DNA of 64,000 nt from Candidatus Micrarchaeota archaeon (GCA_027345565.1 DAHWIF010000005.1:6058-70057), one strand, 5' to 3'. Numbered from the stretch's first letter, positions 13,258-32,025 are shown. A program made the numbers and translations. The notes: generated by a model not told the origin, from the letters alone.

Positions 13258-13311
13258 GCGCAACTATATTGTTTGCTAACCTATTTTATAACTGTTGCCC
13301 AATTACTGCTG

Positions 13312-14004
13312 ATGATGCGCGAGAATACCTCATGGCATATAGAGGTCAGGGACATTATCATAGCAGACCTGGTGCTTATCATAGCTATGGCGCTCACCCT
13401 CTCCGGTGGCATATTCGGCGCCAGCAATTCGAAGTTCGCCGGCAACTTCCTGCTCCTCCTCCCGATCGCTGCGATAGGCGTGACGCTGAGTTTCGTCCTC
13501 CACGAGCTGATGCACAAGTTCGTAGCGCAGCACTACGGTGCGATAGCCGGCTTCCGCACTTCGTTCATGGGCCTCGGCATAACCCTTGCTACGGGCGCGT
13601 TCGGCTTCCTCCTCGGCATACCTGGGGCTACGATGATATACGCCCACAACTTCACTAGGAGGGAGAACGGGATAGTATCGCTCGCAGGCCCTCTCACGAA
13701 TTTTGTCGTGTTCGGAGCGTCGCTCGCACTCTTTTACATCCTTGCACCTCCAGCAGGCTCTTACCTGGGCGAGGCGCTCTACTTCACAATCTTCATAAGC
13801 ATACTCCTTGCCTTCTTCAACATGCTGCCTATATTCCCGCTTGATGGCAGCAAGGTGCTTGCGTGGAGCGCACCGGTCTACCTCGCCACCATAGGCACGA
13901 TATTCGTGCTCATGCTGATATTTACACCGATACCGCTCTCGACAATAATATTCATGCTGGTAATAGCCCTTTTCTTTTCGCTGTTTTACAGGCGCGCATT
14001 CTAG
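13312..14004 (+). CDS. Site-2 protease family (peptidase M50) intramembrane metalloprotease
   Basis: Motifs HELMHKF (HExxH) and NMLPIFPLDGSKV (NxxPxxxLDG) sit in a polytopic membrane protein. The ORF opens at TTG 13273, but ATG 13312 fits a TATA-like CTATTTTATAA at 13281-13291. Confidence 0.8.
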   Translation: MMRENTSWHIEVRDIIIADLVLIIAMALTLSGGIFGASNSKFAGNFLLLLPIAAIGVTLSFVLHELMHKFVAQHYGAIAGFRTSFMGLGITLATGAFGFLLGIPGATMIYAHNFTRRENGIVSLAGPLTNFVVFGASLALFYILAPPAGSYLGEALYFTIFISILLAFFNMLPIFPLDGSKVLAWSAPVYLATIGTIFVLMLIFTPIPLSTIIFMLVIALFFSLFYRRAF

Positions 14005-14051: not shown

Positions 14052-15332
14052 ATGGCGGAGAACGCTGCACCATCGACGAAGACGACGATAGATTCCCTGG
14101 TAGAGCTTCTCAAGAAGAAGGGGAAGATGGACCTTGCTTCGGTGTCCGTAGCCCTCGGAGTTGACCAGGCGATAGTGGAGAACTGGGCGAAGGTGCTTGA
14201 GAAGGGCAACATAGTAAAGATCACTTATGAAGTAGGGAAGATGTTCCTCACCATACCGACGCTCTCCGCGGAGCAAGAGGCGACAGAGCGCTCAAAGATA
14301 GAGGCGGGGATTTCGGGGCTGACGGCGCAGAGCGAGTCGCAGATGCTTTCCCTCGACAAGCTCACAGAGGCGCTAGAATCGATAAAAGGGTCTGTTGCAA
14401 CCGCGGAGAAGGCCGAGACCAGCGAGATGCCGGAAATACGCCGCGCGATAGCCGATCTCAACACAATATACGCAACGGTTGAGCAGAGGAATAGGGGACT
14501 TGAGCAGATGGCGAAGAAAGCCGAGCAGATATATGATGAGATAAACAAGAAGGTCACCGAGCTCAGCACAAGGCTTGGCGGCATAAGCGGCGAAGGGAGC
14601 ACGAAGGGAGTCGACGATGCCAGGCAGGAGCTTGCATCCATATCGAAATCGATCGCAAGCGTAAACTCAGAGATATCCGCGGTTGGCAAGAGCAGTTCCG
14701 AATCTATGGACCAGATAAGAAGGAGCGTGATAGAGCAGTCCAAGGCGCTGGAGAGGCAGATAGAGCAGTCTAAGAAGGAGATGAATGCTAAGCTTAGTGA
14801 ATACGCAAAACAGGCGGATGCCATAGAGAGCCAGCTCAAGGACCGGGTCAGGGCCATAAGCTCCAGCGTGGACGAGCTGAACAGTTTCTCCAAGGAGCGG
14901 GAGAAGCAGCTGCGCAGGCTGCGCGATTCCAGGGTCGAATTCAACGATTATTATGTGAAGATGAGCGAGGAGCTCAAAGCACAGAGGGCGTCGGCCGATG
15001 CGATATCAAAAGAGGTGGGTGAGAAGGTTGCGAAGCTGAAGGCGGGTTTCGGCGAAGCCGCAGAGATCGATGACACTCTTAGCACGTTGAAGAGCCAGAT
15101 GGCTGGCCTGGAGAAGGAGATAGCAGACGCGCGCCAGGATGTAACTGACATAATAAACAAGCTGCGCGCCTTAAACGCGCTCTCATCAGCGCCCACCGGG
15201 CAGGAGATGGCTGCGCTGAGCACCCTGCAGAAACGGGCATCAGCTGCAAGGTCAAAGGTCTCCAACATAAATGATAAAGTGGAGAACGCCAGGTCGGCCG
15301 CGAGCAAGATAGCTGAAAAGAAAAAGAAGTAG
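14052..15332 (+). CDS. wHTH-like N-terminal domain plus long coiled-coil protein; first gene of the filament biogenesis operon
   Basis: The N-terminus is IDSLVELLKKKGKMDLASVSVALGVDQAIVENWAKVLEKGNIVKITY. It is followed by about 350 aa of E/K/A/S-rich heptad-like sequence. A TATA-like GTATTAAAGG lies about 30 nt upstream. Confidence 0.65.
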   Translation: MAENAAPSTKTTIDSLVELLKKKGKMDLASVSVALGVDQAIVENWAKVLEKGNIVKITYEVGKMFLTIPTLSAEQEATERSKIEAGISGLTAQSESQMLSLDKLTEALESIKGSVATAEKAETSEMPEIRRAIADLNTIYATVEQRNRGLEQMAKKAEQIYDEINKKVTELSTRLGGISGEGSTKGVDDARQELASISKSIASVNSEISAVGKSSSESMDQIRRSVIEQSKALERQIEQSKKEMNAKLSEYAKQADAIESQLKDRVRAISSSVDELNSFSKEREKQLRRLRDSRVEFNDYYVKMSEELKAQRASADAISKEVGEKVAKLKAGFGEAAEIDDTLSTLKSQMAGLEKEIADARQDVTDIINKLRALNALSSAPTGQEMAALSTLQKRASAARSKVSNINDKVENARSAASKIAEKKKK

Positions 15333-15342
15333 GTAGGTTTGA

Positions 15343-16842
15343 TTGGAGCAAAAAGACGCCGAAAAGGTTCTTGCCGAGTACAGCCTTAATGCGAACGGCA
15401 TGCCGATAAATGTAAGGATAGCACAGACTGCGGATTACGTACCGATATACAACATGAGCATACCAGGCCTGAGCGACCCTACCAAACTACTCCTCTTCTC
15501 ACTAAGGGGTGAGCTTGTCGCAATGGTGACGGTTGACACCACGCGCATACAGGACAGGAAATATCTAGAGGAGGTAAACAGAAAGTACATCGAGACAAGC
15601 AGCACACTGATAGACAAGTACCTGCCAGCCACCCCAACCGAAACAAAATCGCTACTGATCGCCTATATAATAAACATGATGCTGGGCCTCGGGGACCTCG
15701 AGGCCCCGCTGGCCGATGACAACCTTGAGGAGATAACGGTCAACGGCGCTGCGAACATGATATGGGTGTTCCACAAGCAGTTTGGTTGGTGCAAGACAAA
15801 CATGAAGCTGGCCAACGAGGAGATGATATACGACTACGCCGAGCAGATAGGAAGGCGGGTCGGCAGGGAGATAAACAACCTATCTCCGCTCATGGATGCA
15901 GTGCTGCCTGACGGATCTAGGATGAACGCCACGCTCTACCCAGTGTCGCAAGTCGGCAACACCATAACGATAAGGAAGTTCGCGAAGAATCCGTGGACGA
16001 TGCCAGCTATGATTAAGAACCAGACAGTGAGCTCAGAGATAGGCGCGGTGGTGTGGTTGTGCATACAGAACGAGATAAGCCTTCTGATATCAGGGGGTAC
16101 CGCGAGCGGCAAGACCAGCCTGCTCAACTCCTCAAGCATTTTCTTTCCGCCGAGCCACAGGGTTGTGTCTGTCGAGGAGACCAGAGAGCTCACCCTGCCG
16201 AGCTTCCTCCAATGGGTGCCCATGGTCACCAGGCAGCCTAATCCAGAAGGCAAGGGAGAGGTGACACTTTACGACCTTACAATAAACGCGCTTAGGCAGA
16301 GGCCGGATATAGTCGTCGTTGGGGAGATAAGGGTCAAGAAGGATGCTGAGACCCTCTTCGAAGCGATACACACTGGCCACGCGGTGTACGGCACTGTGCA
16401 CGCGGACAATGCGCAGGATACGATAGTGAGGCTGACAAACCCCCCGATAGAGGTCCCGAAGATAATGCTGAACGCGCTTGGCGCCGTCATGGTCGCATTC
16501 AGGCACAGGAATAAGGGCATAAGGCGCATACTCGAATACGGTGAAGTGCTTAGGAGCGGGGATGTCAACGTGCTGTACAAATGGAGCCCGAGGAGCGACA
16601 GTTTTCCGCAGATAGGGGACATGACGAGGCTTGCCGACACGCTGATGCTGTATTCGGGGTACACCGCGAAGGAGATAGACGACGACATTGTGGAGAAGAT
16701 GTCCATACTCGACTGGATGGTGAAGAATGATGTCGTGTCTGTGGACGACGCTGGATTCGTAGTCGCCAACTATTACAAGAACAAGGACAAGGTTTTGGGC
16801 ATAGTGAGGGATAATGCAGCATTTTCAAGGGATATATTTTAA
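15343..16842 (+). CDS. Type II/IV secretion-family ATPase (archaeal FlaI/PilB/EpdL/TadA-like)
   Basis: Walker A GGTASGKTSLLN, Walker B/Asp box RPDIVVVGEIRVKKDAE and His box HTGHAVYGTVHAD are present. The start is TTG, 10 nt after the upstream stop. Confidence 0.9.
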   Translation: MEQKDAEKVLAEYSLNANGMPINVRIAQTADYVPIYNMSIPGLSDPTKLLLFSLRGELVAMVTVDTTRIQDRKYLEEVNRKYIETSSTLIDKYLPATPTETKSLLIAYIINMMLGLGDLEAPLADDNLEEITVNGAANMIWVFHKQFGWCKTNMKLANEEMIYDYAEQIGRRVGREINNLSPLMDAVLPDGSRMNATLYPVSQVGNTITIRKFAKNPWTMPAMIKNQTVSSEIGAVVWLCIQNEISLLISGGTASGKTSLLNSSSIFFPPSHRVVSVEETRELTLPSFLQWVPMVTRQPNPEGKGEVTLYDLTINALRQRPDIVVVGEIRVKKDAETLFEAIHTGHAVYGTVHADNAQDTIVRLTNPPIEVPKIMLNALGAVMVAFRHRNKGIRRILEYGEVLRSGDVNVLYKWSPRSDSFPQIGDMTRLADTLMLYSGYTAKEIDDDIVEKMSILDWMVKNDVVSVDDAGFVVANYYKNKDKVLGIVRDNAAFSRDIF

Positions 16843-16849
16843 CAACGTG

Positions 16850-18095
16850 AGCGGGAAATCCCACACCATTCATGGGTGGGATGAAAGCGAACCGCAGATA
16901 AGCATATAAAGATAAATTGGGATAAAAACAGAGGAACAAAAGGGAATGTGATGAACAGGGCATACAAATTCAGGATATATCCGACAAAATCTCAAGAGAA
17001 CGAAATGGATACTCACAGGTGGATTTCAAAGAACCTATGGAACGAGATGCTTGCATTCTGCAAGGAGACATACGAGAAGACAGGAAAGTTCCCGAACAGG
17101 AACCAATTGCAGATAATGACGAAACAGAAGGGCATGTATTCGCAGTCTTCGCAGGATATATCTCATAGGTTGGTGAAATCATTATGGACGTTCATTCAGC
17201 TTCGGAAAAAGGGAAAGAAAGCCGGTTTCCCAAGGTTTAGGAACATCGATAGGTCAAAATCAATTTATTACCCTCAATCTGGATTCTGGTTGGGCAAGAA
17301 ACTGAAGGTAACTCCCTTCGGTGAGATAAAGATAATAAAACACAGGGAGGTTGAAGGGCAGATAAAAACTCTGTCATTGAAACGTGAATCTGCTGGACGA
17401 TGGTATGCTGTATTCACCTCAGAACTTCCTGATATAGAACTCAAGCCAAATGGAAAGGGAAAGGTAGGAATGGATTTGGGGCTGAAGACATTTGCTACAT
17501 TGTCAAATGGGATAAAGATAAACAATCCTCGTCATGTAAAGAAATACGAAAGGAAACTTGCGATATGGCAAAGAAGAATGTCAAAAAGGGAAAAAGGAAG
17601 CCATAATAGGTGGAAGCAGAAACAGAAGGTAGCAATGCTGTACGAGAAGGTTTCCAACGTAAGAAAGGATTTTCAACATAAACTATCAAATCAATTCGTA
17701 AATTCATATTCATTGATTGCATTGGAGAAACTACAGTCAAAGAATATGGCACAGCAAAGATACGGAAAGTGGATAAATGACGCTGGATGGAATTCATTTG
17801 CAAACATGCTGACATACAAGGCTGAAAGTGCTGGGTGTCAGGTCGTATTCGTGAGTCCAGAGAATACGTCAAAGACGTGCCATGTCTGTGGGAACATGCA
17901 GGACATGCCTCTCAACGAAAGGACATATAATTGCGAGAGGTGCATGTCGGTAACGGACAGGGACATAAATGCATCTATAAATATACTTACAAAAGCTACT
18001 CTGGGACACAGAGGAAGTAACGCTTGTGGAGATGGCAAAAATGTTGTCTAAGAAGCAAGAAGCCCACACCCTTCAGGGGCGGGAGTATGTCACTG
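16850..18095 (+). mobile_element. TnpB-only IS200/IS605-family (IS1341-like) element
   Basis: A tnpB ORF is flanked by two related subterminal hairpins in direct orientation. The left one is ATCCCACACCATTCATGGGTGGGAT at 16858-16882. The right one is CCCACACCCTTCAGGGGCGGG at 18063-18083. No tnpA is present. The region is visibly more AT-rich than its flanks, and the exact ends are not determinable by eye. Confidence 0.7.
16951..18051 (+). CDS. tnpB: TnpB/OrfB RNA-guided endonuclease (IS605 OrfB family)
   Basis: The N-terminus MNRAYKFRIYPTKSQENEM is classic for OrfB. The protein also has GMDLGLK (RuvC-I Asp), a zinc finger CHVCG..x..CERC, and DRDINASINIL (RuvC-III). Confidence 0.9.
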   Translation: MNRAYKFRIYPTKSQENEMDTHRWISKNLWNEMLAFCKETYEKTGKFPNRNQLQIMTKQKGMYSQSSQDISHRLVKSLWTFIQLRKKGKKAGFPRFRNIDRSKSIYYPQSGFWLGKKLKVTPFGEIKIIKHREVEGQIKTLSLKRESAGRWYAVFTSELPDIELKPNGKGKVGMDLGLKTFATLSNGIKINNPRHVKKYERKLAIWQRRMSKREKGSHNRWKQKQKVAMLYEKVSNVRKDFQHKLSNQFVNSYSLIALEKLQSKNMAQQRYGKWINDAGWNSFANMLTYKAESAGCQVVFVSPENTSKTCHVCGNMQDMPLNERTYNCERCMSVTDRDINASINILTKATLGHRGSNACGDGKNVV

Positions 18096-18122
18096 GTTGT
18101 CCTCGTTTATAACTGTGGTTAT

Positions 18123-18821
18123 ATGGCTGACCAAGCAGCAGAGAGCGCGTACACCAAGCTGCTGAAGCAGATAGAGCAGATTGAGGGTGCGGTCAGCGCT
18201 GTAGGGAGCGCAGCTATAGACATATCCGGCAGCTTCGCCAATGCACCAGGCAGGAAAGCACCGTCATATAGGGATATGCTTGTTAAGATAAATGAGATAG
18301 AGAAAAGTAAAGCAAGGGTGCCGAAGGCCGCTCCTGCTGTACAGGCAGCTGCTCCGCAAGCAGCGCAGCCAGTTGCCCCACAAGTGCAGGTGCAACAGGT
18401 GAAGCAGGAGGAGCTTGCACAGCTGCCAACAGAGCGGAAAGAGGGGACAAACGTATATGCGGGTAAGGAGCTTGCCGAGCTTGTAAGATCCCTGCCTGTA
18501 AAGATACCGAAAGTTGGCAAGCACAAATTGAAGAGAGAGAAGGATGCGAACCTTGTGCTGCCTAACCTTTCGCTGGTGGACCAGGTCGCTGAGCTGGAGC
18601 GCATACTCGATGCTATAAATGCCAAGGCGCTGCACGGTGACGAGCTAGATATGGTGGCCAGCGAGCTATACGGGCTCGTGGAGCGGGTCAATGCTGAGAA
18701 GAAGCAGCTAAAGAAGGGCAGGTCGTCAAATGCTGACGATTACCAGCTCCTGGAGCTTCGAGACCAGAGGATAGAGGCTGTGGCAGCCGCGCTAACGGAT
18801 GCAGAGAAAGCAGGTGAATGA
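18123..18821 (+). CDS. A/Q/P-rich, partly coiled-coil hypothetical protein in the filament operon
   Basis: The ORF opens at 18024 inside tnpB. The first ATG outside the IS element is at 18123 (MADQAAESAYTKLLKQ). Low-complexity AAPAVQAAAPQAAQPVAPQVQVQQVKQEE is present. Confidence 0.55.
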   Translation: MADQAAESAYTKLLKQIEQIEGAVSAVGSAAIDISGSFANAPGRKAPSYRDMLVKINEIEKSKARVPKAAPAVQAAAPQAAQPVAPQVQVQQVKQEELAQLPTERKEGTNVYAGKELAELVRSLPVKIPKVGKHKLKREKDANLVLPNLSLVDQVAELERILDAINAKALHGDELDMVASELYGLVERVNAEKKQLKKGRSSNADDYQLLELRDQRIEAVAAALTDAEKAGE

Positions 18822-19940
18822 TTGGGGCTTTTCAAGAAAAAAGAAATCAAAGTGATAAACGTTGAGGGCAGGAGGATAGAGCTCCAGCCTAAGCCGAAGA
18901 GAGGGCTGTCTGCGCTGTTCGGCGGAGGTGTCACGAAGCGGCAACCGAAGCCGCAGCAAATCGTTGGACCTGCTGCCCAGCCACAGAGTCCTGCTTCGCA
19001 GCCGCAACAGAGACCTGCCCCTCAGCCGGTGCAGCATGCGGAAAAGCCGGTGCAGCCGCAACAGGCGCAGCAGCAGGCGCAGAAAAAAACGCAGAGCCGC
19101 ACGCCGGCCGCGTGGCGGCACCACATAGAGAAGCTAGCGATAAAGAACAGGAAGATAGAGACTATGCTGCAGCAGAGGCGCATGGGTGTGAGCCTCTACG
19201 ATTTCATACAGCGCATGTTAATAGCCTCGATAATAGTTGCGGTCGTCATTGCGGCAACGATGCTGCTCGTCCTTGTGAGGGCTGGGGTGGTGCTGCCTGC
19301 AGCGCTAGTTCTCGCAGTACTGATAGGCTACGCGGTGAACAGGTTCGCGTTCAACTCTTTCCTGAGATATCCGCTCAGGAACGAGGAGATAGCGGCTAAG
19401 AACATAGAGCGCGACATACTGTTTGCAGCTAGGAACATGATAATATCGTTAAGGTCCGGCATGCCGCTCTACAATGCGATAGTCTCTGTAAGCTCCGGAT
19501 ATGGCGACGCCAGCAGGGAATTTGCGAAGGTGACCGAGAGGTCCAACCTCGGCATGTCGCTTGAGGAGGCTGTAGACCAGACGGTATCGGAGAGTAAGAG
19601 CCAGTCATTCAGGAGGATAATGCTTCAGGTATCCGCTAGCATAAAGGCCGGGGCGGATATAGTGTCGTCGCTGCAGAGCGTGACTGACCAGCTGTCAGAA
19701 GAGCGCATGATATCGCTCAGAAGGTACGGGCAGAGGCTGAACGCGATAGCGATGTTCTACATGCTCTTCGGCGTGATACTGCCTAGCATGGGTATAGCGA
19801 TAGCCACCATACTCACCACCTTCATATCCGTGTTCACTGTCAACGACGCGCTGCTCGAAGCCGCGATAGTCGGTATAGTCTTCCTGCAGTTGATATTCCT
19901 GCAATTGATAAGGTCATCGAGGCCTGTATTCGCACTGTGA
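18822..19940 (+). CDS. Single-domain T2SS-F family membrane protein (TadB/EpdJ-like platform protein)
   Basis: It has one T2SSF-like domain (ARNMIISLRSGMPLYNAIVSVSSGYGDASREFAKV..GMSLEEAVDQ) and flanking TM helices. The N-terminal ~110 aa are P/Q-rich. The start is TTG, preceded by the SD-like AGGTGA. Confidence 0.8.
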   Translation: MGLFKKKEIKVINVEGRRIELQPKPKRGLSALFGGGVTKRQPKPQQIVGPAAQPQSPASQPQQRPAPQPVQHAEKPVQPQQAQQQAQKKTQSRTPAAWRHHIEKLAIKNRKIETMLQQRRMGVSLYDFIQRMLIASIIVAVVIAATMLLVLVRAGVVLPAALVLAVLIGYAVNRFAFNSFLRYPLRNEEIAAKNIERDILFAARNMIISLRSGMPLYNAIVSVSSGYGDASREFAKVTERSNLGMSLEEAVDQTVSESKSQSFRRIMLQVSASIKAGADIVSSLQSVTDQLSEERMISLRRYGQRLNAIAMFYMLFGVILPSMGIAIATILTTFISVFTVNDALLEAAIVGIVFLQLIFLQLIRSSRPVFAL

Positions 19941-19944
19941 TGCC

Positions 19945-20940
19945 ATGGCTATAAATTTTGAGAGGCTTGTCTCGCGCGGCCTGGCCATAAGGGTCTCCAG
20001 AGAGATGGACCTTGCGGGAGTGAAAAGCAGCGTAAACCGCATACTAGGCATCGCAATAATCGGCGCGCTGGCAATACTCATAATTATCTCCTTCCTGCTC
20101 GCCATCTCGCACACCACCGCCGCGTCTCTCGCCTTCGTCATCGGCGCAGGCACTGCGGCGTTCTATATAGCCATCATATACGTATTTCTTGAGTATAGGA
20201 TAGACAAGAGGCGCATGGGCATGGAGAGCATGCTGCCCGACTACCTGCAGATCGCATCAGCGAACCTGAGGAGCGGACTCTCCCTGGACAGGGCGATGAT
20301 GATTGCGGCGAGGCCAGAGTTCACGTTCTTCTCAAACGACATAAAGGACATGTCAAGGAGGGTGTTCGGCGGCGAGACGCTTGCGAATGCCCTGAGTGGA
20401 GTCGCTGTGAAGTACCGATCAAGGCAGCTCAACCACACTGTCAAGATGATCACCGAGTCGCTGCGTTACGGCGGTGCAATGGCGGACCTGCTCGACCAGG
20501 TAAGCAAGGACATACGCGGCCAGCAGATGATCCAGAAGGAGGTGTCGAGCCAGCTCTTCATGTACAGCATATTCATAGCGTTTGCTGGCATAATAGCTGC
20601 GCCGGTGCTCTACGGGCTGACAGGGCAGATGATAAGCGTCACTGATACCGTATGGAAGGGCATACTCGCTGCCAACCCAGGCGGTCTTCCGACGATAGGC
20701 GTGTCGTTCCTTAAACCATCACCGCCGCAAATAAGCATAGCTACTTACAGGTACTTCTCAATCGCAGCCATAATCGTGATAACGGGTTTCGCAGGGCTGA
20801 TAATGTCTGCGATATCTACAGGATCGGCTATGCGGGGCATAAAGTATCTTCCTCTGTTCATACTCGGCGGCCTAGGAATATATCTGATCATAGCGAAGCT
20901 CATAGCAGGCCTTTTCGCAGGCATCACTCCCGCAGCATGA
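19945..20940 (+). CDS. Single-domain T2SS-F family membrane protein (TadC/EpdK-like platform protein)
   Basis: The T2SSF-like domain reads LPDYLQIASANLRSGLSLDRAMMIAA..GETLANALSGVAV..ITESLRYGGAMADLLDQV, with N- and C-terminal TM helices. Confidence 0.8.
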   Translation: MAINFERLVSRGLAIRVSREMDLAGVKSSVNRILGIAIIGALAILIIISFLLAISHTTAASLAFVIGAGTAAFYIAIIYVFLEYRIDKRRMGMESMLPDYLQIASANLRSGLSLDRAMMIAARPEFTFFSNDIKDMSRRVFGGETLANALSGVAVKYRSRQLNHTVKMITESLRYGGAMADLLDQVSKDIRGQQMIQKEVSSQLFMYSIFIAFAGIIAAPVLYGLTGQMISVTDTVWKGILAANPGGLPTIGVSFLKPSPPQISIATYRYFSIAAIIVITGFAGLIMSAISTGSAMRGIKYLPLFILGGLGIYLIIAKLIAGLFAGITPAA

Positions 20941-23562
20941 TCATGTCGGTACAATCGATGCGCCGCACACTCCGTTTATCATGCTTGCGACCGTGCATGA
21001 CCCGGAAGAATTGCTTATGTAGCCGTTGTTGTTTCCTATTACATCATGCGTCTGGTTAAGCATTCCCTGGTATGGCACCGAGAGCGGCCAGTATGATACT
21101 GGGGTCATGCCGCTCACGCTGTTGTTCAGGTAAAGGCTCTGCACCTGGCTAGCATTCATGGCATTCGCGTATATCTGTATGTCTGCGGCATCGCCAATGA
21201 GATTCTGGCCCGCGCTGTTGCCGTATCCTATCTGGACCCCTGTGTTCTGGTTTGATACCGAAAACGGGTCGCTCAGTACGTTAGCTCCGTCAACATATAT
21301 GGTTTCTGTGCCTCCGGATATGACTGCCGTCATGAAATACCATTCGTTCGTGCTAAGCGACGTCGATGATTTGAATTCCGTGGCGTTTATCCAGTCGTAA
21401 AAGCAGGGGTTTATGGAGCTGCCGCATGCGCCTACGCCCCATGCATCCTCCTTCGCCACCAGCCAGCCCAAAGTGCTCGGCGCGGCTGCATAGTCCACCC
21501 AGCCAGATATCGTGAGCGGCGATGGTAGCTGCAACGCCGCAACGTTAGGCACCTGCACGTATGCATCGTTTGTGAAAGCCATGGCGCTAGGCACGCTCCC
21601 GTTAGTGACACCTAGCGCTCCAGCCTCGCTCTGCGCGGTTCCGCCCCGTGCTGCAAGCACGCGCGGACCCAAATAAAGGTGGCTTAGCGTGATGTTGCCG
21701 CACTGGTTCAGGTTGGCGCAGTTGAGCACGCCTTTCACCACGCTTGCATTGTAAAGGTTTGGCATGTTGGGGAATACAGGATCGGAAATGTATCCTGCCA
21801 TTTTGGTATACATCATATTCTGCGCTGTGCCGTTGTTGTTCTCTCCTGAATAATCGTTCGCGTTGCCGTTGAGCGGCCACCACCCGGCTAGGCTTGCGTT
21901 GGAGAGCGGCGTGCCATCCAGGCCATTGATGTAGAGCCGGGACACCTGGGCTGGCGAGAGCGCAGTTGTATAGATTTGCACATTTGCTATGTTGCCGGAG
22001 AAATAGAGGCCCCACACCTGCTCATACCCTATGATGGTGTTGCCAAGTCCGGACAACGGGGAGGATGCCGAGCCTGAGCTGTATGTCGGCCCTGGGGATG
22101 CCACTCCATCCACATATATCTTGAAGTCGGAAGGCGACACAGAGGTGCCTGACGGCGCATAGAATGTTCCGACTATCAAGTGCCATTTGCCGTTGTTCAC
22201 CGCCCTATTTGCGTTCAGCAGCTGTATTACGTTGTTACTGTCCAGCAGCACCGCCGGGGTGCCTGCTGTTGAGCCGCTGCAATAGCTACCAGGGCTGCCG
22301 CATGAAGGGCCTACAGCGAGGGTTATGCTTTGACCGGCCCCGCTTCCCCTGTCACTGACAACTGCTCCCTGCGACGCGGTTGTCTTCACCCACGCTGCAA
22401 TCGTGTAGGCGGTGACAGAGTTCTGCACGTACGGGACGGACACATAGCTGCTTGCGCCGTTGAATTGTGCATATCTGGTGTTAATGGCGCCAAGGCTGAA
22501 CGAGCCCTGCCCTGATCCCACAGATCCTTGCTGTTGCGACTGCTGCAGGTATGAGGGAGCGCCAGATGCCTGATAATAGTAGCCGTTCTGGATGCCTGTC
22601 TTCACCCGGGCGAGGTTCAGCAGGGCCAGTGCAGAGCCGTCAAGCAGCACAGATGTGCCGTTGCCTATCACGTTAGGGGATATGAAATCAGATGGATATA
22701 CCAGGTAAGGGAAGAGCGGTGTCAGCGACCCCAATGAATTTGTGACCAAGCCGCCCATGCTGCATATGTTCGAAGAGAGTGAGCCGGCATCAGGGGTGAC
22801 AAGTATGTAGTTTGCATTCTGGAATCCTGACGGCACGTTGCTGCATGTCGGCGTGCCACCTATGTATACGGCGGTGCCGTATGCGAACATGAACGGGCTC
22901 CTGCTCCCAGACAGCGCGCTCGTATTCCCTATCATGGTCTGTGGCTGTGCCGCGCCAGTCACGTAAGATGTGACGCCTCTCTCCGCGCCAAGCAGGCTCC
23001 GTGTCCCGTTTATGCTTACGTTGGCTGTAGATGAGATGGGGTAGTTGATTATTCCGGTGCTGAGGTTCAGAGTCACAAGGTCTGTCAGCCTGGCGGTGAG
23101 GTTCAGCGGCGCTCCCTGGTAGACGCTGATTGACAGGTTGCTGATAGTGAAGCTGCCGCCCTGCAGCGACGCCAGTCCCTGCAGCGCAGAGGTGTAGTTG
23201 ACTAGCATGGCCCCTCCCATGTACGATAGCATATTAGTTCCGTATATCGTCCCGTTGTCCATCAGGCTTGCCAGAGCATATGCGGTGTTGTTTATGAAAT
23301 GGTACTTCCTCAATGATGGTGTGGATTCGTACACTGTAAGCGCGTTAAGCGAATTATTCAGGCTAGCCGCCAGGAAGCTGCCAGAACCGCTGCTTATGAA
23401 GCCCAGCAGCACAGAGGAGCTGAACGCAGCAGATGTGGCGGAAGTGAGATGGTCGTAGCTGATGCTTATATCCACATAACTTGAAAGCTCGCCAAGCATG
23501 AGTATGAATAGGACAAGCATTGCCAGCGTAAGCAGTACCCCCTTCTTGTTCTTCATCTCCAT
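20941..23562 (-). CDS. Prepilin-like N-terminus plus multi-LamG/concanavalin-like secreted protein (873 aa)
   Basis: The N-terminus is MEMKNKKG|VLLTLAMLVLFILML. LamG_3-type cores are present (QFNGASSYVSVP..AYTIAAWVKT) together with the linkers AGWWPLNGNANDYSGENNNG and SYWPLSVPYQG. It is the last gene of a four-gene minus-strand operon and overlaps the upstream gene by 10 nt. Confidence 0.8.
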   Translation of the reverse strand: MEMKNKKGVLLTLAMLVLFILMLGELSSYVDISISYDHLTSATSAAFSSSVLLGFISSGSGSFLAASLNNSLNALTVYESTPSLRKYHFINNTAYALASLMDNGTIYGTNMLSYMGGAMLVNYTSALQGLASLQGGSFTISNLSISVYQGAPLNLTARLTDLVTLNLSTGIINYPISSTANVSINGTRSLLGAERGVTSYVTGAAQPQTMIGNTSALSGSRSPFMFAYGTAVYIGGTPTCSNVPSGFQNANYILVTPDAGSLSSNICSMGGLVTNSLGSLTPLFPYLVYPSDFISPNVIGNGTSVLLDGSALALLNLARVKTGIQNGYYYQASGAPSYLQQSQQQGSVGSGQGSFSLGAINTRYAQFNGASSYVSVPYVQNSVTAYTIAAWVKTTASQGAVVSDRGSGAGQSITLAVGPSCGSPGSYCSGSTAGTPAVLLDSNNVIQLLNANRAVNNGKWHLIVGTFYAPSGTSVSPSDFKIYVDGVASPGPTYSSGSASSPLSGLGNTIIGYEQVWGLYFSGNIANVQIYTTALSPAQVSRLYINGLDGTPLSNASLAGWWPLNGNANDYSGENNNGTAQNMMYTKMAGYISDPVFPNMPNLYNASVVKGVLNCANLNQCGNITLSHLYLGPRVLAARGGTAQSEAGALGVTNGSVPSAMAFTNDAYVQVPNVAALQLPSPLTISGWVDYAAAPSTLGWLVAKEDAWGVGACGSSINPCFYDWINATEFKSSTSLSTNEWYFMTAVISGGTETIYVDGANVLSDPFSVSNQNTGVQIGYGNSAGQNLIGDAADIQIYANAMNASQVQSLYLNNSVSGMTPVSYWPLSVPYQGMLNQTHDVIGNNNGYISNSSGSCTVASMINGVCGASIVPT

Positions 23563-25727
23563 AATACCACGCTAACGTTGTATAGAGGCGCATTCGCGCT
23601 GGCGCTGATGCTCATCGGGAACGCCGCGGCGCTGACCTGATAAGCTGCGCTGAGTGACGGCGGAGTGAAGTTCACTCTTGCGTATGTAACGCCTGAAGGA
23701 TATCCGATGTTGCCGTTGCCGCTGTAGTCGTTGGTGTCGCCAAGCAGGGGCCACCACCCCGCTATGGTGGAGTTCACCGGCAGGCCGGCGATGCCCTCGT
23801 CGTAAAGCGCTGTTATGCCCTGCTGTTGGAGCGGCACGGCATATATCTGCAGGTCCGAGATCGTCCCGTTGAACGGCAGGCCGCTCCCGCTGGCGTCGTT
23901 GCCTATGCCGAGGTTGTTGTTGTCGAACGATATCATGTTTGTCGTATTGAAAGAGCCTATAAGCGAAGCATTTACATAGATGCTCGCCTTGTTCGTAACG
24001 GAGCTCCATACAGCAGTGATGTAGTACCATCTGTTGGCTGCGGGTTTGAACGACACCTCGTAGGAGCAGCCCCAGAAGTTGGAGGCCATGAAGAGGAGCC
24101 CGTAAGCAGTGCCGCAGCCGTTGGCGTTGCTGCCTATGTACTCCAACGCGTAGTCGTTAGTCTTGTTAACGATCGCCTGCGTGTCAGGATACGCATTGGA
24201 GTTGAAGCGCACCCATGCCGATATCGTTATGCCGGTGTTTGGCGAGTCGAGCGATGCGGAGCTCGGCACGCTGACATAGCTGTTTATGCCGTTGAACTGC
24301 GCCAGGTGAAGCGACGGCGCATACGTGCCGTTTATGTATACGCCGATGTTGGGGGTGCTGTACGAGCTGTTGAGTAGGCTTGTTGCACACCCCCCATAGC
24401 CATTCACGTACATGCTTGCTATCGCCTGCAGCACGCTGCCTCCAGGCACAGCTCTGCACGTGCCGAATACGTATACGGTATTGCCGGCAGATACGTATGC
24501 GTTGCCATTGGCGAGCGCCACATCCTGGAATAGAGCAGAGCTGGATTGCGGCAGCGTAGTGTCCCATACCGGGGAGCTGTTGTCCGATAGCTTATATGAC
24601 AGGAAATGGTCGTTCGCCGCCAGCATATAGAAGGCTCCAGCCGTGGATGACGGCGTGGAATTTGATAGCGTGCTCTCTATGTGGAATTGCTTCGTGGTGC
24701 AGCCGCAGCTGACGTTTATCTGCCATACGTTGGTCTGCATCGGGAAGTAGATGTTGCCGCCCTCAAGCGTTCCGCCGCCGAATGAGCTTACCCCGGGTAT
24801 GTTTATCGACCAGAGCTGGAGCCCGCTCATGCTGAGCCCGACTATCTGGTTTGCGCTGCCGATTACTATGAGATTGCCCGCTATCAACGGAGTGGTTGAT
24901 GTCGTTATGGACCACGTGTAGCTCCAGATCTGCTGCAATGCGCCTCCGACTACGGCAAAGCCCAGTACGTAGTTTTGGGATGCCGGAGCGCTGGTGCTGA
25001 CTATGAACTCGCCTGAGCCGTACGCTGGCACGGTTGCTATGTTGGGCAGCGATTTGTGGAAGAAGCTGCCGTTAATCGGGCTCATTAGCACTACGTTGGC
25101 TTGGGCGCCGAACGCGATATAGCCGCCGCCCAGGGACATCGGCGTCGACTGCGCAGAAGGCAGCTGTGTAGACTTCCAGCTGAGCGAGCCGTTCCTCTGC
25201 ACCGCGGAGACATAGCCTGTGGAGTTGCCGTATATTATCATGTTGTTGTAGATTATCGGGTAGAGTACATTACCGTAGACCGCCTTGCTCAGGATCGGGC
25301 TGCCTGTCGTGGCGTTTATCACATACAGGGTGTTGCCTGATGCAAATGCAGCCATGCCGTAGCCTACAGACACAGGAGAGCTTATCGGACCGCTTGCCGT
25401 GTGGGTGAAGAGGAGCTGCGGAAGCTGCGGCCCCACAGAGGACGATGCTGCGAGCGGGCCTCCGTTGCCGAACGACTGCCATGTGCTTGCGGAGCCTAGA
25501 GTCGCGTTCGCTGCGGCCATCGCATAGAGTGACCCCGCGTCGGCAGCCACCGTCAGCCCTGTCCCCATGAGGCTCTGTGCGACGCTGAACGCCTGCGAGG
25601 TCAGCGGCTGGAATACCGGTGTGCCTGCGAAGTGCACATACGCGAGTATGCCTATGGCCGCTCCTGCAACTATCAGCGAGAACGCCGCATCGATCGTGAA
25701 AACGAATCCCTTGACATTTTGTCCCAT
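23553..25727 (-). CDS. Prepilin-like N-terminus plus PQQ-like beta-propeller plus C-terminal LamG domain (724 aa)
   Basis: The start MGQNVKG|FVFTIDAAFSLIVAGAAIGILAY shares one nt with the upstream stop (TGATG). Repeats such as GNTLYVINATTGSPILS, GYVSAVQRNGSLSWKS, NQIVGLSMSGLQLWSI and GNTVYVFG are typical of PQQ/BamB-like propeller blades. The LamG region has AQFNGINSYVSVP and AGWWPLLGDTNDYSGNGNIG. Confidence 0.75.
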   Translation of the reverse strand: MGQNVKGFVFTIDAAFSLIVAGAAIGILAYVHFAGTPVFQPLTSQAFSVAQSLMGTGLTVAADAGSLYAMAAANATLGSASTWQSFGNGGPLAASSSVGPQLPQLLFTHTASGPISSPVSVGYGMAAFASGNTLYVINATTGSPILSKAVYGNVLYPIIYNNMIIYGNSTGYVSAVQRNGSLSWKSTQLPSAQSTPMSLGGGYIAFGAQANVVLMSPINGSFFHKSLPNIATVPAYGSGEFIVSTSAPASQNYVLGFAVVGGALQQIWSYTWSITTSTTPLIAGNLIVIGSANQIVGLSMSGLQLWSINIPGVSSFGGGTLEGGNIYFPMQTNVWQINVSCGCTTKQFHIESTLSNSTPSSTAGAFYMLAANDHFLSYKLSDNSSPVWDTTLPQSSSALFQDVALANGNAYVSAGNTVYVFGTCRAVPGGSVLQAIASMYVNGYGGCATSLLNSSYSTPNIGVYINGTYAPSLHLAQFNGINSYVSVPSSASLDSPNTGITISAWVRFNSNAYPDTQAIVNKTNDYALEYIGSNANGCGTAYGLLFMASNFWGCSYEVSFKPAANRWYYITAVWSSVTNKASIYVNASLIGSFNTTNMISFDNNNLGIGNDASGSGLPFNGTISDLQIYAVPLQQQGITALYDEGIAGLPVNSTIAGWWPLLGDTNDYSGNGNIGYPSGVTYARVNFTPPSLSAAYQVSAAAFPMSISASANAPLYNVSVVLWR

Positions 25728-26269
25728 CAGCTCACCGACGATACGCTGCCGCTCCACACCATCACCGTTATCTGCGCAGCCTCTCCGTTTATGAATGCAC
25801 TCTTCCTGCTTATGTAAGTCGTTACAGAGTTGCCTGTCAGCGGGCTCCTGCCCATCGTTATATTGAGCGTGCTGCTGTTTATGATTATATAGTAGTTGAA
25901 GCTCGTGCCTAGGTCCTGCCCTGCCATAGAGTAGTTGTAATCCACCATTGACATCAGCGCGTACATCTTCGCGGCCGAGAGGCTTGGAGACCCCTGTGAC
26001 TGTGCAAGCCCTATCCCTATATCGCCCCAGGTGCTTACTGACGATGTGTTGACCGCAGACTGCCAGTCCGCAGGACTTCCTGTAGACATTAGGTTCTGCG
26101 CCACGGCTTCCGACTGAAGCTGCATTATGTAGCTGGTCCCGCCTGTAGCAAGCGAAAGCTGGTTGCTTATGTCAAGCCATGCGATTGCCAATATCGTTAT
26201 CGCCGCCAGGAATATTATCATTGCGAAGAGCGCGTCAAAGCTCCAGAACTGTGCCCTAAAATTGTCCAA
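25727..26269 (-). CDS. Small pilin-like protein (180 aa, class III signal peptide)
   Basis: The TTG start gives MDNFRA|QFWSFDALFAMIIFLAAITILAIAW. An SD-like GGGTGAT lies 7 nt upstream. Its size and architecture fit a structural pilin. Confidence 0.7.
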   Translation of the reverse strand: MDNFRAQFWSFDALFAMIIFLAAITILAIAWLDISNQLSLATGGTSYIMQLQSEAVAQNLMSTGSPADWQSAVNTSSVSTWGDIGIGLAQSQGSPSLSAAKMYALMSMVDYNYSMAGQDLGTSFNYYIIINSSTLNITMGRSPLTGNSVTTYISRKSAFINGEAAQITVMVWSGSVSSVS

Positions 26270-26275
26270 TCATAA

Positions 26276-28972
26276 TCACCCTAGCGTTGTATCAAGGCCT
26301 ACGGCCCGCGGCATGCCCTGCAGGTAGAGCTGTTGTATCTGGTATTGTGAAAGCGATGTATTGTATATCTGCGCATCCGCAACCCCGGCAGTGCAGCTTC
26401 CGATAGACCAACTTGACTGCTGCAGGTTCTGCGTTGTTGATAAGGACAGCGTATTCGAGACTCCGTCCAGCGACACGGCGTACTTGCCGTTAGAATAGCC
26501 GAGCGTAACGAAGCTCCATCTGTTTAGGGGCACACTGAGCTGGCTGTATACCGGGGTTTGAACGCTGGTAGCCGTGCTGGCACCGAGATATCCGCTCTGA
26601 TTTATAATGAGATTGAATCCGTCACCATCTGCGCCCTGGCTCCCAATGGACGCCACGTAGCATAAAGAGACTGAATTGAAGCTGATCGGGTATACCCACG
26701 CAGCGACAGTCTTCGGTCCGGATCCGAGTATGGAGTTAGGTGCGTCTGGTATATCCACACCGGTTCCTTGGAAGGAGAACGCGGCAAGCTGCTGGCCCAC
26801 TTTAGCAGTGTTGTTGTAGCTTATTGAGTTGAATGCCACATCTATCGCATTTGATGATGCGTATGCATGGTTTGCATAGTTGTTCGCGTTGCCATTTAGC
26901 GGCCACCAGGCTTGGATGCCCTGGCCCTGCAGCGGTACAGAGGTCAGGCCTTGGGAATACATTGTTGCTACCTGGCCCGCAGTGAGCGACCCATTGTATA
27001 TCTGCACGTTGGCTATCGTCCCGTTGAAGACGTAATTTAGTCCGGAGTATTCCCCTATATACTCCTCGGATGAGCTTCCTGGAGCTATCGCTGTGCGGTA
27101 GCTTCCTGCGAGGGTGCCGTTCACATATATGTCAAGCACGTTGCCGTTATATGTGCCTGCAACGAAATACCATGTGTTGAGATTAGGCGTTGTCGGATCA
27201 CAGACCCTCAGTGTGTTTACCCCTATCTTAAACATATATGCAGTCGGGTTGCTCACCTGGTTATCACAGTTCGAATCGCTTTCAAGAAGCATGATGTGAT
27301 TATTGCTTACCGGGTTCCCGCTCTCTATGACTTCGTTCTTGTAGCTGTTCAGGTGCACCCATGCGGCTATGGTGAAGTAAGGGAGGCTGAGCCCTGCTGA
27401 TTGTATGAAGCTGGTTGCTCCGTTGAAATTTGCTGCGTTGAATGCGGTGTTCGATGTGACCGGCAGGTACACCGCCTTAGCCTGTCCGGTCCCTATCACA
27501 AGAGAGCCGACGTCCCCCTTGCCGCTGAAGTCAGGCACGCTCAATCCATCGTTTACGCTAAGCGGCCACCACCCCGCCAGGTCGTTTGCCGTGGTAAGGT
27601 TCCCATTGAATGGTTCCGCGTATATCGTAGCATTGCCCGAGAAACCGTTAGCCGTAAGCAGCGTGCTCTGCTGCCCGGTCGATGTGGTGTTGGCTGCCAC
27701 GCTGTTAGAACCGCCAAGCAGGTAGTTTGAGGTGAAGAAGCCCATCGGCACATGCGGAGCCGCCACGCCTCCAAGTGTTGATACGCTGGCCAGCGTGTCC
27801 ACCGAGTACTGATACGATATATCATTCGCCGCCCCGTTGTTGCCGTAGCCGCTGTAATCGTTCGCGTTGCCGTTGAGCGGCCACCATCCCACCAGGTTGC
27901 CAAGGCTAGCCGGAGGCGCGGCGGCCGGCCCCAGCGAGTATATCTGGCCGATCTGGTTTGCAGGCAGCGAGGCGTTGTAGATCTGCGCGTTTATCACATA
28001 TCCGTTAAGGTAAGTGGCGTTCGCGGGCGATCCTCCTATTATCACATTGGCAGACCCTGTTATGCTTACTCCTGGGCTGGATGTGGCTACCGACAATCCA
28101 TCGACGTACAGCTCCGCAATCCCAGAGCTCTTGTTATACGTTGCAGCTATATCGTACAGAGCGCCAGGGACTATCGAGTTCTGGCCGATTAGCTTAAACG
28201 CCCCTCCCCAGTTTATCAGGAATATCGGGGCGCCGCCGTTCGTTATTGAAAGCATGAATGGCTGCGCCGCAGCGCTAATCTCACCGATTACTGGGTTGTC
28301 GAGATAGGGCGTTGTTGAACCTGTATTCAGGCTTTTCAGCTCAACCCACGCATCGAGCGTTATGCTGTTGCCTATCGTGAGTACGCTGTTTGACTGGACG
28401 CTGATCAAGCTGTTTGCTCCGTTGAAATACGGTGCAGCAACGGAGCCTGGCTGCGAAAGCACAGGCGGCCCGGCTAGGCTCGCAGGCTGTGGGGATGGGA
28501 CATCGATGAATATGCTGCCGCCAGCATTCGCCACCTTGACATAGCCGGTATAGATAGGTATCCTGTATACGTTTATCCCGTTGCCGCTAGATACGAGCGT
28601 GCCGTTTATGTAGAGGTTGCGCGCGCTGCTCTGGGCTATTCCGGTTATGATTTCCTTCCCAACCGTCGTATTGGCTATTACTAGCCCTGTTGTTGATATC
28701 GATATGTTATAAGATACAAGGCCTATGCCAGCGCTTAGCGGCACGAATGCGGAATAGCCGCTGCCGGCCTGCAGCGCCTGGTTTATGTAGCTCGCTACGC
28801 TCTGGGATATGAGCTGCATTACAGATGCCTGTTGCGCAGCGAGCGCAACCGATCTCTCGTTCGCTATCAGGGCGAATACAACAATGAATACAATCAGCAC
28901 TATTGCATATATTATCATGAATTCTAGAGCTATCTGCGACCTCGCGCCAGCATGCCGCCACCGCCCCCCCAT
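26276..28972 (-). CDS. Prepilin-like N-terminus plus triple LamG/concanavalin-like array (898 aa)
   Basis: The ORF opens at 29056, but ATG 28972 gives MGGRWRHAGARS|QIALEFMIIYAIVLIVFIVVFALI (Q at +1, E at +5) and leaves a 92-nt divergent promoter region. There are three WWPL linkers: VGWWPLNGNANDYSGYGNNG, AGWWPLSVNDGLSVPDFSGKGDVG and QAWWPLNGNANNYANH. Confidence 0.8.
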   Translation of the reverse strand: MGGRWRHAGARSQIALEFMIIYAIVLIVFIVVFALIANERSVALAAQQASVMQLISQSVASYINQALQAGSGYSAFVPLSAGIGLVSYNISISTTGLVIANTTVGKEIITGIAQSSARNLYINGTLVSSGNGINVYRIPIYTGYVKVANAGGSIFIDVPSPQPASLAGPPVLSQPGSVAAPYFNGANSLISVQSNSVLTIGNSITLDAWVELKSLNTGSTTPYLDNPVIGEISAAAQPFMLSITNGGAPIFLINWGGAFKLIGQNSIVPGALYDIAATYNKSSGIAELYVDGLSVATSSPGVSITGSANVIIGGSPANATYLNGYVINAQIYNASLPANQIGQIYSLGPAAAPPASLGNLVGWWPLNGNANDYSGYGNNGAANDISYQYSVDTLASVSTLGGVAAPHVPMGFFTSNYLLGGSNSVAANTTSTGQQSTLLTANGFSGNATIYAEPFNGNLTTANDLAGWWPLSVNDGLSVPDFSGKGDVGSLVIGTGQAKAVYLPVTSNTAFNAANFNGATSFIQSAGLSLPYFTIAAWVHLNSYKNEVIESGNPVSNNHIMLLESDSNCDNQVSNPTAYMFKIGVNTLRVCDPTTPNLNTWYFVAGTYNGNVLDIYVNGTLAGSYRTAIAPGSSSEEYIGEYSGLNYVFNGTIANVQIYNGSLTAGQVATMYSQGLTSVPLQGQGIQAWWPLNGNANNYANHAYASSNAIDVAFNSISYNNTAKVGQQLAAFSFQGTGVDIPDAPNSILGSGPKTVAAWVYPISFNSVSLCYVASIGSQGADGDGFNLIINQSGYLGASTATSVQTPVYSQLSVPLNRWSFVTLGYSNGKYAVSLDGVSNTLSLSTTQNLQQSSWSIGSCTAGVADAQIYNTSLSQYQIQQLYLQGMPRAVGLDTTLG

Positions 28973-31792: not shown

Positions 31793-32025
31793 GGTGGCGG
31801 GCGAGCAGCTTACCGAAAGGAGGAAGCTCCTCCCATACAGAGCACATCCTGCCTAAGGCAATATCCGGAACAGAAACGAGACCACTGCCGCGCACAAAGC
31901 GATGACACCACGAGCGCGCGGGTGTGGATGAAACGCGCCGGGGAAATGTGCAGATGAGTATGCAAGGCCTTGAGCCGCTCAGTCAAATGCTGCATAAAAC
32001 AGAAGGAGGGCTACGGCCCGCCACC
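31793..32025 (+). ncRNA. rnpB: RNase P RNA (compact, ~233 nt)
   Basis: P1 pairs GGUGGCGGGC (31793-31802) with GCCCGCCACC (32016-32025). P2 pairs GCAGC with GCUGC. A CR-I-like GGAGGAAGCUCCUCC is present. The 3' strand reads AUAAAACAGAAGGAGGGCUACGG (CR-V ACAGAA). P4 forms as AGC-U-CCUCC / GGAGG-GCU with a bulged U. Internal GGAACAGAAACGAGACCACUGCCG and GCAGAUGAGUAUGCAAGGCC resemble conserved S- and C-domain strings. Confidence 0.85.

Follow-up and report, generated by a model that had tools for sequence, protein, structure and literature searches.

Layout of the locus

The 64,000-nt stretch of DNA analysed here (hereafter the window; GCA_027345565.1, DAHWIF010000005.1:6058-70057) comes from a member of the Candidatus (Ca.) Micrarchaeota and contains, at positions 14,052 to 28,972, a nine-gene module in which the machinery of a type IV filament (TFF) converges on an operon of four proteins with prepilin-like N-termini, three of them very large and carrying LamG domains. 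A first-pass annotation, made from the sequence alone, had proposed this region as a candidate adhesion or cell-contact apparatus; all the genes it named are present where it placed them, as confirmed by a list of open reading frames (ORFs) and their translations, and it overlooked both gene D and a TnpB insertion element within the plus-strand operon. The module runs A-B-D-E-F on the plus strand and then P4-P3-P2-P1 on the minus strand, as follows (a slash marks the putative cut in each prepilin-like N-terminus):

14052-15332, plus strand: gene A, 426-aa cytoplasmic coiled-coil protein, first gene of the operon
15343-16842, plus strand: gene B, 499-aa assembly ATPase, T2SSE family, FlaI/GspE2/CpaF superfamily
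18123-18821, plus strand: gene D, 232-aa soluble accessory protein between the ATPase and platform genes
18822-19940, plus strand: gene E, platform protein 1, single T2SSF domain, TadB/TadC-like
19945-20940, plus strand: gene F, platform protein 2, single T2SSF domain
20941-23562, minus strand: P4, 873 aa, N-terminus MEMKNKKG/VLLTL..., last gene of its operon
23553-25727, minus strand: P3, 724 aa, N-terminus MGQNVKG/FVFTIDA..., propeller and C-terminal LamG_3
25727-26269, minus strand: P2, 180 aa, pilin-like, N-terminus MDNFRA/QFWSFD...
26276-28972, minus strand: P1, 898 aa, class-III-type N-terminus MGGRWRHAGARS/QIALEF..., first gene of its operon

The minus-strand operon is dense, with overlaps of 1 nt between P2 and P3 and of 10 nt between P3 and P4. 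F and P4 end stop codon against stop codon, at a distance of 0 nt (window 20938-20943), and there is therefore no space for intergenic terminators separating the two operons.

The filament machinery

Pfam searches bear out the earlier recognition of type IV filament machinery with a split platform, that is, one T2SSE ATPase together with two T2SSF genes of one domain each. Gene B matches the hidden Markov model of PF00437 at E 2e-33 (115.9 bits against a cutoff of 24.9), and its translation contains a Walker A motif (GGTASGKT), a Walker B/Asp box (VVVGEIR) and a His box (HTGHAVYGTVHA). Its nearest solved relatives are GspE of Archaeoglobus fulgidus (2OAP, 235 bits), FlaI (200 bits) and CpaF (170 bits), and it stays under the NCBIfam cutoffs of both FlaI (262 vs 550 bits) and BasE (125 vs 1000 bits). 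Genes E and F each match PF00482 in one stretch with 57 bits (cutoff 25.2), at E 2e-15 and 2.5e-15, respectively, and the product of E carries a Q/P-rich cytoplasmic N-terminal extension.

The two remaining products are those of genes A and D. The protein encoded by gene A has no transmembrane segment, and its Pfam and NCBIfam matches are of coiled-coil type only, every one below cutoff. It had been annotated as a coiled-coil protein with a winged helix-turn-helix (wHTH): the coiled coil is clear, while the second half of that description fared less well, with no helix-turn-helix family matching the N-terminus of the window copy and a single orthologue matching wHTH models below threshold (HTH_65, E 3.6e-4). 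The N-terminal ~70 aa may nonetheless form a wHTH. Gene D, the start of which was placed by alignment with its closest relative, L005 (MADQAAES...), has no Pfam or NCBIfam match.

Lectin-domain proteins of the substrate operon

The lengths of the four minus-strand products (898, 180, 724 and 873 aa) and their domains, LamG_3 in three of them and a propeller in P3, agree with the first-pass reading, and the start Met chosen there for P1 is supported by its orthologues. P1 consists of a ~215-aa N-terminal module followed by at least three LamG_3 domains (E 9e-48, three stretches); P2 has no Pfam domain match; P3 matches PQQ_2 (E 2e-9) and LamG_3 (E 2e-20); and P4 has a ~360-aa N-terminal region followed by two LamG_3 stretches (E 1e-31). 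No match to DUF2341 was found in the locus at E <= 0.01, the concanavalin-superfamily domains of P1, P3 and P4 matching LamG_3 (PF13385) instead.

In composition, P1-P4 are rich in N-glycosylation sequons (1.7-2.4 per 100 aa) and poor in charged residues (K+R+D+E, 5-8%), with P4 at 2.4 and 6.6%; the corresponding values for the cytoplasmic and membrane components A-F are 0-1.0 and 15-32%. Many sequons combined with few charged residues fit exposed glycoproteins of an acidophile, low charge being typical of acidophile surface proteins, and this suggests an acidic habitat.

Conservation and linkage across Micrarchaeota

A total of 330 homologues of F was recovered, the best 120 of which share 59-92% identity with it; those named by organism belong to Micrarchaeota or 'Marsarchaeota' metagenome-assembled genomes (MAGs). 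Scanning with an F alignment, and keeping one genome per species, yielded 80 related loci, labelled Micrarchaeota except for a few mislabelled or unclassified entries (Marsarchaeota, one 'Acidiferrales bacterium' and one unclassified archaeon). Since the F homologues named by organism derive from Micrarchaeota MAGs, some mislabelled as Marsarchaeota, and the window itself is from a Micrarchaeota archaeon, the guess of a DPANN source made from the sequence alone proved right.

ORFs were called in each locus and matched to the window proteins by phmmer. The order A-B-D-E-F followed by convergent P4-P3-P2-P1 recurs almost everywhere among the 80 loci, and two separate platform genes adjoining one ATPase are kept in all of them. 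An orthologue of A (E <= 1e-5) occurs in nearly all loci, always upstream of the ATPase, with 78 orthologues aligning over at least 60% of the query; a D-type ORF occurs in most, invariably placed between ATPase and platform genes, with 50 of them aligning over at least 60%. Where at least 8.5 kb was available downstream of F, 48 of 52 species-level loci carry three or more P-type genes on the opposite strand; in L063, three inserted genes displace them. The reverse test, in which metagenome contigs were scanned with a P2 alignment, gave 13 of 15 loci (those with at least 6.5 kb downstream of P2) in which F/E/B adjoin P4. Such recurrence is far beyond chance, and the LamG genes accompany the ATPase and T2SSF genes in relatives, apart from a few real exceptions. 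A gap of 30 nt or less between F and P4, or overlapping stops, is seen in about half of the related loci.

Flanking genes differ from genome to genome. Those of L001 are the same as in the window (TrkA/M50 and Hel308), and in L003 the upstream side has an ABC transporter and PadR, the downstream side V-ATPase genes. The nine genes thus travel as a module, and the view of the two convergent operons as one functional neighbourhood is upheld from either anchor.

Rates of divergence vary along the module. Median identity is 66% for B (across 78 species), 59-62% for F, 50% for E and 27-30% for A; among the substrates it is 43% for P2 and 31-35% for P1, P3 and P4, and within P1 it is 43% for the N-module vs 30% for the LamG array. 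P-protein orthologues range from 375 to 1547 aa, and those of P4 alone from 412 to 1547 aa. The combination of a conserved carrier and rapidly diverging binding modules has the look of adhesins that may be tracking a partner.

P2 is the best-conserved substrate and a marker of the system. An exhaustive profile search placed 595 cluster representatives in its family at E <= 1e-3, mostly of 155-200 aa, with some members of ~380 aa carrying an extra C-terminal domain. The family is wider than Micrarchaeota, as it includes Ca. Gugararchaeum and a Ca. Diapherotrites MAG, and the N-terminus [KR][GAS]Q-xxSxD is kept in the six members read.

Prepilin-type N-termini and predicted structures

The first-pass annotation had described prepilin-like N-termini of class III type on all four P proteins, and comparison with orthologues (distinct N-termini containing the hydrophobic helix, 59-94 per family) finds the motif kept throughout the phylum. 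In P1, Q-x3-E-[FYW] is present in 60 of 62 N-termini, with K/R at -2 in 50 of 60 and A/G/S at -1 in 46 of 60 (Leu in 12, Ile in 2). P2 is stricter, with Q-x4-D in 94/94, K/R at -2 in 91/94 and A/G at -1 in 83/94 (Leu in 10). P3 has [FVIL]-x-F-[TS]-x-D in 71/72, K/R at -2 in 71/71 and G/A at -1 in 68/71, and P4 has [KR]-G before the helix in 59/65, with K/R at -2 in 59/59 and G at -1 by definition of the motif. Leader length runs from 2 to more than 20 residues, yet the sequence past the putative cut is almost invariant, and a conserved acidic residue sits at +5 or +6 within the hydrophobic helix.

In class III signal peptides, the leader is short and variable and has G/A as its last residue, a basic residue occupies -2, and the helix contains an acidic residue near +5 (PMC9934059). 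The leaders of P1-P4 follow this pattern, which is not expected of a plain signal anchor, and cleavage is predicted. When the isolated N-termini were searched, Pfam Class_IIIsignal (PF04021) matched only P1 and one P1 orthologue, both below the gathering threshold; for P1 this was the sole Pfam match (E 0.016) and lay in the correct register. With prepilin-type N-termini conserved on the LamG proteins themselves, these proteins would be modular pilins and more than mere neighbours of a pilus locus: P1, P3 and P4 fit the definition, each joining LamG_3 to a class-III-type N-terminus, and P3 having a PQQ propeller besides. The IPR012902 motif of bacteria is absent from these three archaeal sequences.

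An AlphaFold2 (AF2) model of P2, built on an alignment of 26 sequences (mean predicted local distance difference test score, pLDDT, 78.8), has a 58-residue N-terminal helix (residues 3-60), short helices and a four-stranded sheet at residues 125-173, which at the level of secondary structure only is the predicted 'lollipop' topology of a pilin. In the model of P3 (overall pLDDT 69.8), a helix at the N-terminus is followed by an eight-bladed propeller (residues 104-422, pLDDT 80-93) and then by a LamG domain. The propeller is of BamB/PQQ type (Foldseek E 1e-15), and the top 50 Foldseek matches of P3 include BamB, designed 8- to 10-bladed propellers, tetrathionate hydrolase, Fbw7 and YxaL. A PilY1-like identity for P3 (PilY1-type propeller, IPR008707) was considered and rejected, PilY1 lying outside those top 50 and Pfam Neisseria_PilC giving no match. 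By profile comparison, P2 and the N-terminal 83 residues of P3 are homologues (hhalign probability 95%, E 3e-8). A common origin of all four N-modules was considered on the same basis, but support is confined to the P2-P3 pair, P1-P2 being weak (probability 34%) and P4 matching none.

Comparison with known filament systems

The apparatus had been put forward as novel and lacking a known counterpart, and this part of the first-pass annotation does not stand. An equivalent locus in the Micrarchaeota strain Mia14 (Ca. Mancarchaeum acidiphilum) was catalogued in 2017 as a clade-1 type IV pilus (T4P) (PMC5498576), and novelty is further undercut by the concanavalin-like adhesins of clade 1 (PMC4858521) and by bacterial modular pilins with PF13385 (PMC8179133). 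The window holds another copy of a catalogued Micrarchaeota locus type within a known class of archaeal T4P, not a new kind of machine.

In the list of Golyshina et al. 2017, the ATPase is MIA14_0170, TadC is assigned to both 0172 and 0173, and 0176 appears as a 'secreted component of T4P-like system' (PMC5498576). The order of MIA14_0170-0177, in the same phylum, matches B,[D],E,F,[P4,P3],P2,[P1], with the unlisted 0171 between ATPase and TadC and two unlisted genes between 0173 and 0176; this putative orthology is based on gene order and annotation. Set against the Mia14 locus, the window copy carries the TnpB insertion. The annotation of MIA14_0176 corresponds to arCOG03821 or arCOG07613, which are clade-1-specific and FlaFind-positive (PMC4858521 supplement). 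The authors assigned the locus to the Methanococci/Methanothermobacteria/Thermococci group, which is clade 1 (Epd) of Makarova, linked LamG-like proteins to T4P loci and found key components to be common to many Micrarchaeota (PMC5498576). Their account does not call the LamG proteins class-III-signal proteins and includes neither conservation statistics nor experiments on the locus (PMC5498576).

Clade-1 loci encode an ATPase, two TadC proteins, several minor pilins and two large adhesins with DUF2341 (concanavalin-like), for which a place at the pilus tip has been proposed, with major pilins of ~70 aa as stand-alone genes (PMC4858521). A recent census calls this group System 1; its hallmark is a pair of platform genes, it occurs in methanogens, Thermococcales and DPANN, and adhesin-like proteins are noted in many archaeal TFF loci (Sivabalasarma & Albers 2026, bioRxiv 10.64898/2026.04.22.720090). 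The module resembles clade 1/Epd, as known from Methanococcus maripaludis, in its one ATPase, two platforms, class-III-signal proteins and large concanavalin-fold proteins. It differs in having LamG_3 instead of DUF2341, in genes A and D, which have no identifiable counterpart there, in substrates that form a fixed four-gene convergent operon, and in lacking in-locus EppA or FleN/MinD, which clade-1 loci often but not universally have; neither of the latter was found in the window locus or in the Pfam-annotated gene calls of four relatives (L001-L004).

A split platform and a CpaF-like ATPase are also shared with the Tad/Flp pilus, a system thought to derive from an Epd-like archaeal one (bioRxiv 10.64898/2026.04.22.720090). 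Membership was rejected for want of its components: Flp pilin (~50 aa), TadV, the RcpA secretin and TadZ were not found in the locus by Pfam or NCBIfam, TadD-G are missing, and here the substrates are very large and the organism is an archaeon with an S-layer. An archaellum was rejected on the FlaI score given above, the split platform (ArlJ being fused) and the lack, by Pfam, of Arl accessory genes (ArlF/G/H) and archaellins.

The bindosome (Bas) of Sulfolobus offers another likeness, in that the BasEF pair of TFF ATPase and platform handles large class-III-signal proteins that bind ligands and are not filament subunits. With this precedent, the LamG proteins might belong to an envelope-embedded assembly for the capture of carbohydrates or nutrients, a reading helped by the lectin-type fold of LamG, by the lack of a major pilin in the locus and by the argument of Sivabalasarma & Albers 2026 that TFF machines functionalised for scavenging are widespread. 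We nevertheless hold it to be unlikely, and membership in the bindosome proper was rejected: the BasE score falls far short of its cutoff, the platform here is split, and P1-P4 carry LamG and propeller domains rather than ATP-binding cassette (ABC) substrate-binding domains. No transporter is consistently linked to the module, the ABC transporter beside L003 being absent from the window and from L001, and the divergence and size variation of the LamG proteins fit recognition of a partner better than uptake of a common nutrient.

Parallels for the substrates themselves come from bacteria, in which PF13385-bearing modular pilins are among the commonest architectures, candidate phyla radiation (CPR) bacteria included (Raynaud et al. 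2021, PMC8179133). Streptococcus sanguinis PilC, the lectin module of which is concanavalin-like, binds glycans of the host and is modelled in a tip complex, where the small minor pilin PilA stabilises it (PMC9934059); this pairing resembles the small P2 beside the large P1, P3 and P4, and a further pilin, PilB, carries a von Willebrand factor A (vWA) module (PMC8179133, PMC9934059). The bacterial proteins have the IPR012902 N-methylation motif, mostly a single extra module, and no sequence homology of the pilin module to the P proteins, which differ in carrying two to four modules each and reaching 898 aa in the window and 1547 aa in relatives.

In bacterial type IVa pili, minor pilins with PilY1, and in the type II secretion system (T2SS) GspHIJK, are proposed to prime assembly and to finish at the tip (PMC7541494, PMC8179133). 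A conserved set of four pilin-like proteins encoded together with a propeller-containing adhesin recalls this arrangement; PilY1 is not itself a pilin, unlike P3, which joins its propeller to a class III N-terminus, and no GspH-K homology was detected in the P proteins. It is conceivable, if doubtful, that P1-P4 alone build an adhesive stub free of any major pilin, made of one small and three giant modular pilins, as the archaeal counterpart of the GspHIJK/FimU-PilVWX tip complex, co-opted for host docking in Micrarchaeota and in the DPANN lineages that share P2.

Proposed mechanism and points against it

The reading we favour, at a probability of roughly 60%, is that the locus encodes the Micrarchaeota version of the clade-1/System 1 (Epd-like) filament, displaying a lectin-bearing tip or short fibre for attachment. 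It builds on the gene and domain content, the phylum-wide linkage, the conserved N-terminal motif and the pattern of divergence described above. In this model, a hexameric T2SSE ATPase (B) would act on a platform formed by E and F, assisted by the lineage-specific cytoplasmic accessory proteins A (coiled coil) and D, and the convergent operon would provide four membrane-anchored prepilin-like substrates. A prepilin peptidase of FlaK/PibD type, encoded elsewhere, would cut these after the conserved [KR][GA], upon which the machine would pull their N-terminal helices free of the membrane and pack these together as a tip or priming complex or a short fibre. Such a structure would hold the LamG arrays and the beta-propeller off the cell surface, where they could bind glycans or proteins of the host (Thermoplasmatales in cultured cases) or of other surfaces. 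A small major pilin, if there is one, would have its gene elsewhere in the genome, which is the usual arrangement in clade 1. Cleavage, polymerisation into a filament, location at the tip and the ligand are steps that we infer.

Several points weigh against this reading. (i) Pfam scans of 43 of the 50 non-overlapping ORFs (at least 90 aa each) in the 64-kb window revealed no A24 prepilin peptidase, the other seven ORFs being RNA polymerase subunits, an S10-like protein and small ORFs. (ii) A motif scan of ORFs of at least 45 aa across the window found no credible small major pilin with a class III signal, the scan being imperfect in that its charge filter threw out P1 and P4. In Mia14, the single FlaK-like peptidase (MIA14_0570) lies far from the T4P locus, and MIA14_0118 is an example of a small pilin gene outside it (PMC5498576). 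(iii) Placement in clade 1 is provisional, as it draws on the literature for the putatively orthologous Mia14 locus and on the two-platform layout. (iv) Leu occupies -1 in 10-20% of P1 and P2 orthologues and is not, to our knowledge, a residue compatible with prepilin peptidases. (v) The P2 model has no significant match in the PDB by Foldseek, and none to a solved pilin (the best matches are to ribosomal protein uS3, E 8e-3), and structural proof of P2 as a pilin was dropped. (vi) Three species have the machinery operon without adjacent P genes (L015, L070, L080), two loci have the P operon without adjacent machinery (L126, L127), and one has the machinery with P2 alone adjacent (L141). (vii) Cleavage and filament formation of P1-P4 are predictions, and LamG domains alone do not prove carbohydrate binding. 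(viii) In this lineage, D, E and F may be expressed less because of the TnpB element. As a prepilin peptidase, the M50 peptidase (13273-14004) was considered and set aside, as it is a site-2-type metalloprotease and not of the A24 family.

The Leu residues at -1, the failure of any solved pilin to match the P2 model and the broken linkage in a few genomes also count in favour of a different view, in which P1-P4 are uncleaved, Sec-inserted surface glycoproteins with type II anchors (adhesins or associated with the S-layer), co-regulated beside a pilus the pilins of which lie elsewhere; some large clade-1-associated proteins have indeed been called 'predicted S-layer protein' (PMC4858521 supplement). 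We judge this improbable given the invariant acidic residue at +5/+6 and the near-invariant K/R-G/A in four families with 59-94 orthologues each. P2, moreover, has only 180 aa and the predicted helix-plus-sheet topology of a pilin and is the component most tightly linked to the machinery, and the equivalent Mia14 protein belongs to a FlaFind-positive, clade-1-specific arCOG.

Golyshina et al. speculated that DNA or metabolites are exchanged via the T4P and reported host-derived genomic islands (PMC5498576), and TFF machines mediate DNA uptake in other organisms. That the apparatus serves as a conduit for DNA, metabolites or cytoplasm shared with the host, instead of displaying adhesins, strikes us as very improbable: Pfam and NCBIfam searches found no nuclease, DNA-binding pilin module, translocase or channel component in the locus, and every identifiable substrate domain is of a binding or adhesion type.

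An insertion element within the machinery operon

The spacer between B and D is occupied by a mobile element:

~16848-18085, plus strand: TnpB-only element of IS200/IS605 type, ~1.24 kb, in the B-D spacer and in the orientation of the operon
16948-18051, plus strand: TnpB ORF (OrfB_IS605, E 4e-28; Cas12f1-like_TNB; HTH_OrfB_IS605)

A dip in GC content to 46% at 16-18 kb is due to this element, which extends the distance from B to E to 1979 nt, vs about 510-790 nt typically. Its ends carry a near-perfect hairpin (16858-16882; hairpin motif at 16860-16876) and a related motif (18063-18079), and this motif occurs nowhere else in the window. TnpB was considered as a part of the system and rejected, as none of the other related loci has a full-length TnpB gene and only L005 retains a remnant. 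In L005, at ~86% nucleotide identity the closest relative, an internally deleted copy of ~290 bp with the same ends lies at the same site (L005 7880-8200), and the insertion is therefore older than the split of the two lineages. D, E and F are intact in both the window and L005.

Other features of the window

At 19-1530 on the minus strand, the window encodes a 503-aa protein with a class-III-like N-terminus (MAMKA/QNAMEFVF...) and no Pfam domain; its C-terminal domain recurs in long P4 variants of 1532-1547 aa (L011, L016), and L063 encodes a similar protein of 501 aa between F and P4. A 2269-aa secreted, Cys-rich protein (42 Cys) lacking a Pfam match is encoded at 3065-9874 on the plus strand, followed at 9942-10946 on the same strand by a 334-aa membrane protein. 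Homologues of the two were found as 9 and 10 ORFs of related loci, respectively, and in L001, where the flanks match those of the window, the pair directly precedes the TrkA genes and the pilus locus.

Two AbiEii (nucleotidyltransferase toxin) genes with partner genes occupy 37625-38934 and 50786-52205, both on the plus strand; the first partner is AbiEi-like below threshold and the second has no Pfam match. An archaeal RNase P RNA match at 31793-32025 on the plus strand spans 233 nt against a model of 288 positions and scores 86.1 against a gathering threshold of 84. A 116-nt tRNA at 32975-33090 on the minus strand was matched by Rfam and missed by ARAGORN, its length allowing for an intron.

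Conclusion

To the 2017 catalogue of such loci, our analysis adds linkage statistics across the phylum, conserved prepilin-type N-termini on the LamG proteins, the homology between the N-modules of P2 and P3 and a P2 family that extends to other DPANN lineages. Micrarchaeota are obligate symbionts, and a molecular basis for their attachment to Thermoplasmatales hosts has been lacking. Its presence in nearly every species, together with conserved machinery and fast-evolving lectin modules, makes the module described here the most obvious genomic candidate for an attachment device. Two co-cultures exist, that of Mia14 with Cuniculiplasma and that of Ca. Micrarchaeum harzensis, in which the hypothesis that this filament mediates attachment can be tested.

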